DNA from: Desulfotalea psychrophila LSv54
GTDB taxonomy: Bacteria > Desulfobacterota > Desulfobulbia > Desulfobulbales > Desulfocapsaceae
Direction: 5' to 3'
DNA length: 32,000 bases
Assembly (NCBI RefSeq): GCF_000025945.1
Contig: NC_006138.1
Location: forward strand, 3,390,001-3,422,000
Positions within the stretch are counted from its first letter, which is position 1. Every line of letters begins with the position of its first letter. Under the pieces are notes generated by a model. That model did not search any database and was not told the DNA's origin. It worked only from the letters and a program-made list of their open reading frames with translations. Position numbers and translations under genes: made by a program. Of the stretch, positions 2,330 through 5,600 are shown one piece after another.

Positions 2330-2653
2330 GTGGAATTTCTTACCGCCACGGTCTTTTCTGGTGTTTTGTATGACATGCTCAAGTGTGGAGCTGGTTTAGC
2401 ATCTGATAATATAAAGAAAAAACTACAAGATTGGTTGATCGACGACAATATGGCCAGCAACATTGAGGCTGAACTGGCAAAGCTACAGCTATCAGATGAA
2501 ATGAGTGAATCTGCCATTGCCAAGAAATTAACCAGCTCAGACGAAATTACAAAGATCTTAAAAGAGATAAAACCTATCAATCAAACTACGATTACACAAA
2601 CACACTCTGGTACTGGAGACAATATAGCTGGAAATAAAGTTATTAATAACTGA
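2330..2653 (+). CDS. Small 107-aa protein. It has a hydrophobic/amphipathic N-terminal helix, a helical acidic middle and a C-terminal G/N/Q/T-rich motif that recurs in the downstream protein. It is a candidate executor/adaptor of a two-gene module.
   Basis: AAGGAG (2318-2323) lies 6 nt before the GTG at 2330. The TGA stop (2651-2653) overlaps the next ATG (2653-2655) as ATGA. The N-terminus is MEFLTATVFSGVLYDMLKCGAGLA and the C-terminus is TITQTHSGTGDNIAGNKVINN. I recognise no known family. Confidence 0.8.
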   Translation: MEFLTATVFSGVLYDMLKCGAGLASDNIKKKLQDWLIDDNMASNIEAELAKLQLSDEMSESAIAKKLTSSDEITKILKEIKPINQTTITQTHSGTGDNIAGNKVINN

Positions 2654-5600
2654 TGAGTAACAGCATGACGGAACCCATTTCTCAATATCATTATGGCCAA
2701 GGAGACAATGTTAGAGACAAGATCATCAACCGGGCTATCTCTCCCAAGGCCCTCCTAACTCCCATCCACTCTGTACTAACAAGTTTACGACACCGTCAAC
2801 TAGAACAAGCGAAAGAAAAGCTAACCACCATAAACTCCACATCAAGCCTAGATACAGATACCATCGCCCTACTTAACATCATTCAGCTTTTGGTTAAGTT
2901 GACTGAAGATAACCCTCCAGCAGATAGTTACCAGCTATTAAACTCCTACCTCGCAACAGATCCAGATCAATTCTGTCGAGATATTGCTATCTCTGCACAA
3001 ATCCAACTTGATGCCAAACATGACAACCACCTTGATGCTCATACACGATATACCGCAAAAAAGAGACAAGGGATATACACCAATGAAGCATATTATGCCC
3101 TCATAGCAAACCTTGATGAAATAAAGAGCGTTTTCAATGAACAAAGATTGCAACTTACTGAGATTGAGTTGTGTGGTTTAGTACGTGGAGCACTAAGGCT
3201 AGAAGCTCCTGATGAAGCTCTGGAAATAGCAAAACTCCTACACTCTATTTTGCCAGACCTTAACAGCAAAACGCTTATCCTTTTCACAAAGATATGTCTA
3301 TTTAATAAAACAATCTCCGAATCTAGCGAAGCTAGACATTATTGGAGCATAACTGCAAGTAGTCGCAGAAACCTACTTAACCTATGCGACGAAACCGTTT
3401 GTCTAATGAACAACTGCAAGGGTAACGACACTAGAGTAGTCAACATAGCCACATCATTACTTAACCACGTTTTGGGTGAATACCAACCACTGGCAGACGT
3501 TTGTTGGGATTTCATTTCTAAGGTAGAAGCACAATCACCTGATATCGCATCTGAAATTCGCCGTATATATGAGCGAAAAAGAAGAACCACAGGAGGGATA
3601 TCAGGCAAAATAGCCAAAGCTCAAGAAGATCCAGCATTCAAAAGTGACACCATAAACGAAATAACGAAATCAACAAACATCTCTGCAGAAGACTCCTTTC
3701 TACTAAGTAACATTGGAGATCAAGACACCATCCAAAAATGGCTTGGCTCCGGTGGAGCCATATCAAATACGAATCAGCTTGTAAGTGACGTTGCCCTGCT
3801 TGAACTAAAAACGATGGCATGCAAGGACACCAAGAAAGCAGTTGCAGAACTCCAAGAGGCGGCTGATGAGTTCACCAATAAACATCAAGCTGACTTGGGC
3901 AGCTTAGATCCTCGAAACGCGCTCTCTCTAGCTGAGAAACTCTTCAATCTAGAAATTTTTCCTGCTGCATGCGAGTTACTAAAACCGCACATTCCTAGCA
4001 GTGATATCTGGGCCTCACCCATTCTTCAATGTTATCTCAATGCCCTACTTTACAGCCAGAAAATGATGTCACTGAATTCAATTTTGGAAAAAATTGATAT
4101 AAATGACTGGGATGACGTTATTTGGCAAATAAAAGCACGTCAACTTGGCCATGGCCACAACTATAAAGATGCCATCAATGCCGCAGAAAAAGCATTAGTA
4201 TATTCAAACACATCACGTTACAGTTGGTCTCTTCTTATTTATTTTCACAACCAAAATGACAGCAACAAAGACTTAATCTCCCAAGTGGTGAATCGGATTC
4301 CAGATGAAATATTCTCCCAACCATCTGAGATAGGTTACCAGCTACTGTCTGAAATTGTAAGAATAGGAGATTTTTCGAGAGCCGAGTTTTTTATAATTGA
4401 CTGGTTTATCAAAAACCCCGATCATTGTGCCATTCCTTTCACAGACTTCTACCTTTCGATAATTTTAAAGGGCCACGAAGAACTCAATCCATCGCCTACC
4501 GTGGGTGACTGTCATGGCGGGCTACAATATAGCTGTGATGGGAAAATCACGACTAAACTGTTAGTCACGGAGAAAATCGCACCACACCCATCTTTGATCA
4601 ATATTTCATCTCCACTGGGACAACTACTATCGGCAATGGATATAGAGGACACCCAACAACATGGCATGATGGATATTAAGCTTATCAAACGAGAACCACC
4701 CTATATAGCCATATTCAACATTGCATCGTCATTAAGAGAGGCTCTCAATGATGGTTCTGACTGCTTCTACTCATTCACATTGCCTGAAGACCCAAACGAG
4801 ATGTTCAGGGCTTTGGAGCGAAAGCTGACTCCCTCCCAAGGCAACAAAAGCACCCTCCTCGCCAACCCCAAAATGCCACTATTCCTAAAAGGCTTCTACA
4901 ACAATAGCCACGAAATAGTAAAGTCAGCGTTCCAACTCCTCACAGCAAAAACAGCTACTAAACAGGATTTACCAGCGTTCGGCGAGGAAAATCCAGAGCA
5001 AATCATTCTGGATGTCTATTCTGCAAGCTACCTGGCACTGACTGGTTTAAGCGACAATTTGATAAATTCTCACATTAAAATTGCCATAACTATCGAAACA
5101 AAATTCTATATAAAACAGTGGCTAGAAGATGTAAACCGTGAGGATTATCTTACCATAGGCGTTCACCCTGAGGGGGGCCTCTTACGCTGTACCGCTGAGG
5201 ATATGCGTCTACAAACAGTCGATATACAAAAGGCTCTCAACCAAATACTAACTAAATCTGAGGTAATATCCCCGAATTTGATTGATACCCCACCAGAAGT
5301 ATTGAAAATAGAGGACGCTGTAGACCCATCAGTACTTTCCAGCCTTAAACTTTCAATAACAAACAACATTCCTTGGCTATGCATTGACCTAATTTTTGCA
5401 CAATTATCAAAAAGTTGTGGGCACCCTATTGTAAATGCGCTCCATTTTTTTACATTCCTGGACAGTAATCTGCCAATTGAGCATTTGCATAAAGGATTAT
5501 ACTTACATGTCACAGCGGGATTACCGTACCCCATAACTTACGAAAACATAATCCAGCTCAGCAAATCAAAAGAAGAACATGCACATTACTTTTTAGCTGA

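Follow-up and report, generated by a model that had tools for sequence, protein, structure and literature searches.

The window analysed here is a stretch of 32,000 nucleotides from Desulfotalea psychrophila LSv54 (contig NC_006138.1, forward strand, positions 3,390,001 to 3,422,000). It holds a pair of overlapping genes, DP2998 and the large gene that follows it, whose products share a short peptide, placed C-terminally in the small protein and N-terminally in the large one. We conclude that this is most probably an abortive-infection pair of the Bab/Agp type, in which amyloid templating would run from the BASS11 tail of the sensor (the large protein) to the tail of the effector (the small protein). 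Since sequence, fold and motif all agree, we place the pair, on sequence and modelled structure, as an ordinary member of the experimentally studied Bab/Agp (= GAPS6) family. The biology is already known: a 2024 preprint describes the orthologous pair of E. coli (Ibarlosa et al., bioRxiv 10.1101/2024.11.07.622273), and in RefSeq the D. psychrophila genes carry GapS6 family names already. For the D. psychrophila pair itself, we document anatomy, orthology and fold, co-variation, and the conservation of both the motif and the critical residues.

A first-pass annotation of this DNA had reported the repeated peptide, and we recover it at the same positions (Table 1): in a local BLOSUM62 alignment the two copies score 47, with 10 identities and one gap, and both contain the core Q.H.G.GDN, the receptor copy being one residue shorter than the effector copy. 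The N-terminus of the 1114-aa large protein reads MSNSMTEPISQYHYGQGDNVRDKIINR, and the curated GapS6b model of NCBIfam begins at Q11, inside the receptor motif. On the effector side, Q90, H92, G94, G96, D97, N98 and K103 are invariant across 21 homologs. A score of 47 was reached by none of 20,000 shuffles when terminus was compared with terminus, but by 110 of 2,000 (5.5%) when the whole small protein was aligned anywhere in the large one; thus the D. psychrophila pair alone reaches significance only when the terminal position of its copies is taken into account, and comparative data are needed because a single pair convinces only through their position. It is this 5.5% that speaks for a chance similarity between two G/N/Q-rich, low-complexity termini, an explanation to which the terminus shuffles and the invariance of core residues in both protein families are opposed; the comparative data refute it, and we consider its probability negligible.

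The two genes meet in a TGATG junction, the TGA stop of the small gene overlapping the ATG of the large gene by one base. In RefSeq the large protein begins at the second ATG (2665; 1110 aa), and the motif is retained from either start. A start of the large protein downstream of the motif, which would remove the receptor copy, was considered and rejected: no further methionine follows M5 for ~95 residues (GTG and TTG starts were not checked), so that no plausible start codon was found, and all homologs conserve the motif at the protein level.

Both products match curated models of a phage-defence family. The small protein is a full-length match to Pfam HetE-N (PF20701, 5e-41) and scores 136.7 bits against NCBIfam GapS6a (cut-off 90), while the large protein scores 1328.4 bits against GapS6b (cut-off 850), the two GapS6 models being NF047935/NF047936; the RefSeq name of a 100% identical record (P0001) is GapS6b family protein of D. 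psychrophila. PADLOC-DB 2023 contains a model for neither protein. A pair of the Bab/Agp type from Escherichia albertii (locus L009 of the comparative set described below) also exceeds both the GapS6a and the GapS6b cut-off, which on these curated models makes Bab/Agp and GAPS6 one family. The texts that describe the two systems do not cite each other, and neither states the common family.

Orthology to Bab is supported by both sequence and modelled fold. A sequence search matches residues 1–82 of the small protein to the crystal structure of Bab (PDB 9H9V, 'Babybass') with E=5e-14, and an AlphaFold2 (AF2) model of the small protein superimposes on 9H9V with a template-modelling (TM) score of 0.90–0.92 and a root-mean-square deviation of about 1 Å; apart from 9H9V, the model gave no significant PDB match. 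Over residues 1–81 the E. albertii small protein has the same sequence as 9H9V, and its numbering (I87-G88-S89-V90 and N100; Agp N12) agrees with that of the Bab/Agp preprint. Compared with this pair, the D. psychrophila small protein is 44% identical and the large protein 31% (1076 columns). The six residues of Bab/Agp that were probed by mutation are all kept in D. psychrophila: Bab G11 and N100 correspond to G11 and N98, and Agp N12, S628, L634 and D762 correspond to N19, S653, L659 and D787. G11 is invariant among the small-protein homologs, and D787 is invariant in our family alignment (A1).

The large protein resembles Agp in its predicted architecture. Its AF2 model (mean predicted local distance difference test, pLDDT, 72.8; predicted TM score 0.36) shows an all-helical TPR-like solenoid and an alpha/beta domain near residues 780–920, the latter coinciding with a Pfam PIN-TPR-GreABC match. 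Foldseek with the full-length model returned mainly TPR proteins, the best being Ctr9, SKI3 and APC subunits, and nothing on the GreA-like or PIN parts; Pfam TPR matches are sub-threshold only. For the small beta domain that the model shows between the solenoid and the alpha/beta domain, a family profile found only GreA (1GRJ, E=0.44) and GreB (2P4V, E=1.2) in the PDB, both weak and both over the SPxxxxL signature, and the isolated segment has no Pfam match. Neither Pfam nor NCBIfam finds an NTPase domain in the large protein, and the receptor is thus not an NLR. In the monomer models the motif-bearing tails of both proteins are disordered (pLDDT <50 over residues 86–107 of the small protein; residues 1–29 of the large protein).

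Alignment-based scans of genome contigs yielded 49 related loci; an alignment was needed as the query, a single large protein finding no relatives. The hosts are mostly Gammaproteobacteria of several orders, with one Burkholderiales metagenome-assembled genome (MAG) and the Desulfobulbales genome studied here. The 5' end of the large gene is contained in 44 loci, D. psychrophila included; 43 of these have a HetE-N gene that ends within 80 nt upstream, and in all 43 pairs the small gene lies directly upstream of the large gene and in the same orientation. The core Q-x-H-S-G-x-G-D-N-[IV], whose positions are nearly invariant, occurs in small and large protein alike in 37 of the 43 pairs; in the other six, both partners have a motif that is related to it or altered. 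The first-pass annotation had named a motif missing from one partner as grounds for giving up its reading; there is no such HetE-N/GapS6b pair among the 43.

Partners also change together. Over 36 distinct pairs, the mean motif score is 59.1 between cognate partners vs 50.9 between non-cognate ones, which bears out the expectation that the two termini co-vary within pairs; the signal comes mainly from divergent pairs. At locus L028 both partners read QTSYGSGDNI (0 of 20,000 shuffles), and at L011, L012 and L038 both share a one-residue deletion (GDNVxNK). An Oleispira MAG (L016; 2623–6270) has non-GDN motifs in both partners, QTNVRGTNIGIQNN and QVNRFGQNIAVQNN (3 of 20,000 shuffles), and at L039 (1070–4762) both copies are likewise non-GDN and off the family core, NHQENIYGNNVMIN and NTQNNVNGANIMLN (31 of 20,000 shuffles).

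The same set bears on whether the repeat arose from a recent DNA event at the junction (duplication, slippage or gene conversion) and has no function. Only about 25 nt separate the copies, which share GGAGACAAT, as such an event would predict. The earlier claim that DNA sharing stops there needs a small correction: GGAGACAAT is indeed common to both copies, but so are the codons att (I) and caa (Q). Across the 36 distinct pairs, however, identical motif residues use the same codon in only 45% of cases and nucleotide identity is 64%, which excludes gene conversion and upholds the view that the match is maintained at the peptide level rather than by recent duplication. The motif is moreover present at both termini across several orders, even in homologs of 27–30% identity. 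The codon data refute a DNA event, to which we assign scarcely any probability.

Three loci of the set stand apart in other ways. In two Marinomonas loci (L014, L017) the first ~40 residues of the large protein contain two tandem motif cores (FIGDNVVGGN...SGDNVLGNK), the second of which has GDI in place of GDN in L017; the arrangement recalls the two repeats of HET-s. The third, on a contig binned as a Turicibacter sp. MAG (L018), has motifs identical to those of Pseudomonas/metagenome loci (L012, L034), which suggests either a binning error or very recent transfer into a Firmicute.

A further locus extends the pattern to a different effector. On metagenome contig Ga0256834_1022109 (L029; 590–2625), a GapS6b homolog starting at GTG 829 has no HetE-N partner and is preceded by a 78-aa open reading frame (590–826) that stops 2 nt ahead of it and whose product matches no Pfam family. 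Residues 46–70 of this small protein, IFNKTTIKAKNKSVAAKKICNSTI, match residues 2–25 of the large protein, VFNKTVITASEGGVAAEQIVDSNI, with a score of 56 (0 of 20,000 terminus shuffles; 2 of 3,000 whole-protein shuffles). The shared 24-residue motif, FNKTxI.A....VAA..I..S.I, is quite unlike BASS11. Here motif and effector appear to have been swapped together, and the motifs of L016 and L039 may represent further classes on the same scaffold. We tentatively suggest that the family uses interchangeable amyloid-type 'address' motifs that switch along with the effector, a generalisation we consider somewhat doubtful at present. If the motifs of L016, L039 and L029 are real amyloid signals, they would amount to new BASS classes, together with a new small effector, on the TPR-GreA/B-C-PIN sensor, which would hint that motif specificity insulates co-resident systems from one another.

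What such a pair does has been studied experimentally in the E. coli orthologue. Bab (109 aa) and Agp (1094 aa, TPR-GreA/B-C-PIN) form an abortive-infection system of strain ECOR25, in which BASS11 peptides of both copies assemble into fibrils that bind thioflavin T (ThT) and Congo red and are visible by electron microscopy (EM), solid-state nuclear magnetic resonance (NMR) detects a rigid beta core, green fluorescent protein (GFP) fusions of the motif form heritable foci, and phage T5 makes the motif assemble into rods in an Agp-dependent manner (10.1101/2024.11.07.622273). The beta-breaking substitutions Bab N100P and Agp N12P abolish resistance to phage T5, and resistance is also lost with Bab G11K and with Agp S628L, L634P and D762N (10.1101/2024.11.07.622273). 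Fibril formation, phage-induced assembly and the loss of defence by beta-breakers are thus properties of the E. coli orthologue, and the defence phenotype is one of orthologues.

By analogy, the D. psychrophila copy is presumably active and works by the same mechanism. The large protein would be the sensor, its disordered BASS11 tail followed by the TPR solenoid, the GreA/B-C-like domain (a presumed binder of RNA polymerase) and the PIN domain, and the small protein would be the executioner, a Bell-related, membrane-targeting helical domain followed by a disordered C-terminal BASS11 tail. Upon phage infection, judging from homology with Bab/Agp, the N-terminal motif of the sensor would convert, presumably by oligomerisation, to a cross-beta amyloid fold; this fold would serve as template for the small protein's matching tail, whose conversion would set the helical domain free for an attack on the membrane that kills the infected cell. 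The earlier proposal of an amyloid/prion-type signalling pair therefore gains support, the pair belonging to a family in which E. coli Bab/Agp shows this behaviour experimentally.

The main rival to amyloid templating is that the motif is a docking peptide, the two copies forming a soluble, non-amyloid heterodimeric contact (a beta-hairpin or strand addition) that tethers or inhibits the effector, with activation by release. Two disordered tails would suit any induced-fit interaction, and conservation with co-variation proves a matching requirement only, not a particular structure. Against this stand the properties of the orthologous motif, which gives fibrils by EM, ThT and Congo red, an NMR beta core, heritable foci and phage-induced rods; Bab and HET-S are also reported to be functionally exchangeable (10.1101/2024.11.07.622273), and the D. 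psychrophila motif keeps the invariant core residues. We consider a docking contact unlikely.

Less probable still is a mainly autonomous large protein, a PIN RNase at RNA polymerase that degrades phage transcripts, with the motif serving only self-oligomerisation of the sensor. The first-line-defence model proposed for the TPR-GreA/B-C-PIN core (Kaur et al. 2021, PMC8195603) is of this kind, and the catalytic Asp of the PIN domain is conserved. No Bab-independent activity of Agp was found, however (10.1101/2024.11.07.622273), and in D. psychrophila the intact small gene is tightly coupled to the large one and has kept its own motif copy. These observations make autonomy of the sensor very unlikely.

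Several points temper the case for amyloid templating from sensor to effector. Firstly, the mechanistic source for Bab/Agp is a preprint; secondly, the cognate motif score was reached by none of 20,000 permutations in a test that is not corrected for shared ancestry; thirdly, the D. psychrophila pair ranks only 23rd of 36 in cognate matching and so shows family-level conservation, not pair-specific tuning; fourthly, the receptor copy lacks the glycine before [DN]K that the effector copy has; and fifthly, the GreA/B-C assignment consists of two weak PDB matches (E=0.44 and 1.2) and two conserved residues.

Table 1. Features of the D. psychrophila gene pair (window coordinates)
Feature	Position	Strand	Extent	Remarks
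Small gene DP2998	2330..2653	+	107 aa, GTG start	GapS6a / predicted Bab-like cell-death effector
Helical 'Babybell' domain	2330..2575	+	residues 1-82	N-terminal hydrophobic helix, conserved G11; PDB 9H9V match, AF2 model
BASS11 motif, effector copy, TITQTHSGTGDNIAGNKVINN	2588..2650	+	residues 87-107	N98 = Bab N100
Large gene	2653..5997	+	1114 aa from ATG 2653, or 1110 aa from ATG 2665	GapS6b / predicted Agp-like sensor
BASS11 motif, receptor copy, PISQYHYGQGDNVRDKIINR	2674..2733	+	residues 8-27	N19 = Agp N12
TPR-like alpha-solenoid	2743..4467	+	residues 31-605	all-helical in AF2 model
Small beta domain, GreA/B-C-like	4501..4695	+	residues 617-681	holds S653, L659
PIN nuclease domain	5005..5415	+	residues 785-921	Pfam PF20698 PIN-TPR-GreABC, 4.8e-25; D787 = Agp D762

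Compared with Bab/Agp, the D. psychrophila pair is alike in gene order, protein sizes (107/1114 aa vs 109/1094 aa), predicted domain architecture (the GreA/B-C-like part tentatively), the termini that carry the motif and the invariant core. It differs in its host, a psychrophilic sulfate reducer (Thermodesulfobacteriota) rather than an enterobacterium; in the sensor, which has 10 residues rather than 3 ahead of the motif and a one-residue deletion within it; and in its location, beside a tRNA-Arg gene and not in a prophage hotspot. GAPS6 was described as a two-gene system of Vibrio GMT islands that protected E. coli against coliphages, with nothing but TPR and PINc recognised in the second protein, no mechanism, and no mention of a shared motif (Mahata et al., bioRxiv 10.1101/2023.03.28.534373). 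Both D. psychrophila proteins exceed the cut-offs of that system; no GMT genes turned up in the 2.3 kb upstream within the window, where no search was aimed at them.

Bell-domain/NLR pairs with the motifs BASS1–10 are known from filamentous bacteria (Dyrka et al., bioRxiv 10.1101/2020.01.06.895854). They share with the D. psychrophila pair a C-terminal motif on the effector, an N-terminal copy on the receptor encoded by the adjacent gene, and a Bell-related helical effector domain; motif identity here, about 50%, falls within the 43–56% of pairs that cross-seed (10.1101/2020.01.06.895854). In contrast, the receptor lacks a NB-ARC/NACHT NTPase, the motif class is BASS11, and hosts in our set are mostly unicellular Proteobacteria rather than Actinobacteria or Cyanobacteria. 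The earlier comparison with BASS/NLR pairs thus stands for the motif shared between adjacent genes and falls for the receptor, which is no NLR; the pair is not a strict BASS1–10 pair. As in fungal HET-S/NWD2, where a HeLo effector is paired with an NLR, an N-terminal receptor motif would template a C-terminal effector motif and free a membrane-targeting helical domain. The motifs have no detectable homology, however, that of HET-s being a two-repeat beta-solenoid, and the receptors are of different classes; with no Pfam HeLo match and no NLR in the D. psychrophila pair, the resemblance is one of mechanism only. Finally, TPR-GreA/B-C-PIN conflict systems have been catalogued with a HetE-N-type effector among 13 listed effector domains; in most of these systems one polypeptide carries the effector as an N-terminal fusion (Kaur et al. 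2021, PMC8195603). The TPR-GreA/B-C-PIN core appears constant between those systems and this pair, whereas the D. psychrophila effector is a separate gene product, joined to the core only through the short motif.

The surroundings of the pair are consistent with horizontal acquisition, given its low GC content and the adjoining tRNA gene. GC is 0.37–0.42 across the operon (2000–6000) vs 0.47–0.52 in the flanking housekeeping genes (6500–16000), and a tRNA-Arg(ACG) gene lies at 6266–6342 on the minus strand with its 3' end toward the operon. No partial tRNA-Arg copy or other attachment repeat was found left of the tRNA gene within the window, nor were any island borders found there. A promoter/terminator scan found no convincing terminator on the plus strand directly downstream of the large gene, and promoter-like sites were rarer than in shuffles.

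Other features of the region are recorded here. The tRNA-Arg(ACG) gene occurs twice, each time with the terminator hairpin downstream of it (6217–6342 and 13834–13959, both on the minus strand; 126 nt, 94% identity), and the 7.5 kb between the two copies encode an EB_dh-family protein, a catalase and LutB/CCG-type lactate-utilisation proteins. An intergenic tandem repeat (1752–2009), located upstream of the operon at a distance of about 320 bp, comprises 6.2 copies of a 42-bp unit with 85% matches; the long open reading frames that run through it (1665–2075, plus strand; 1675–2124, minus strand) are probably artefacts of the repeat. Farther upstream lie a divergent gene for a DUF6261 protein (775–1524, minus strand; 6e-26) and a 139-aa open reading frame with Cys-x2-Cys pairs and no Pfam match (230–649, plus strand).

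Beyond what was already known, our analysis makes three modest points. It extends the family to Thermodesulfobacteriota; it joins, through curated models, Bab/Agp and GAPS6, which had been named independently; and it adds natural co-variation as evidence for a matching requirement between the two motifs, including the co-changed pairs and the joint motif and effector swap that L029 appears to represent. Because Bab/Agp and GAPS6 are one family, the amyloid mechanism probably also explains GAPS6, for which none had been proposed. Amyloid templating from sensor to executioner links bacterial antiphage defence with regulated cell death in fungi and animals, and the D. psychrophila pair would most probably be one more instance of it.

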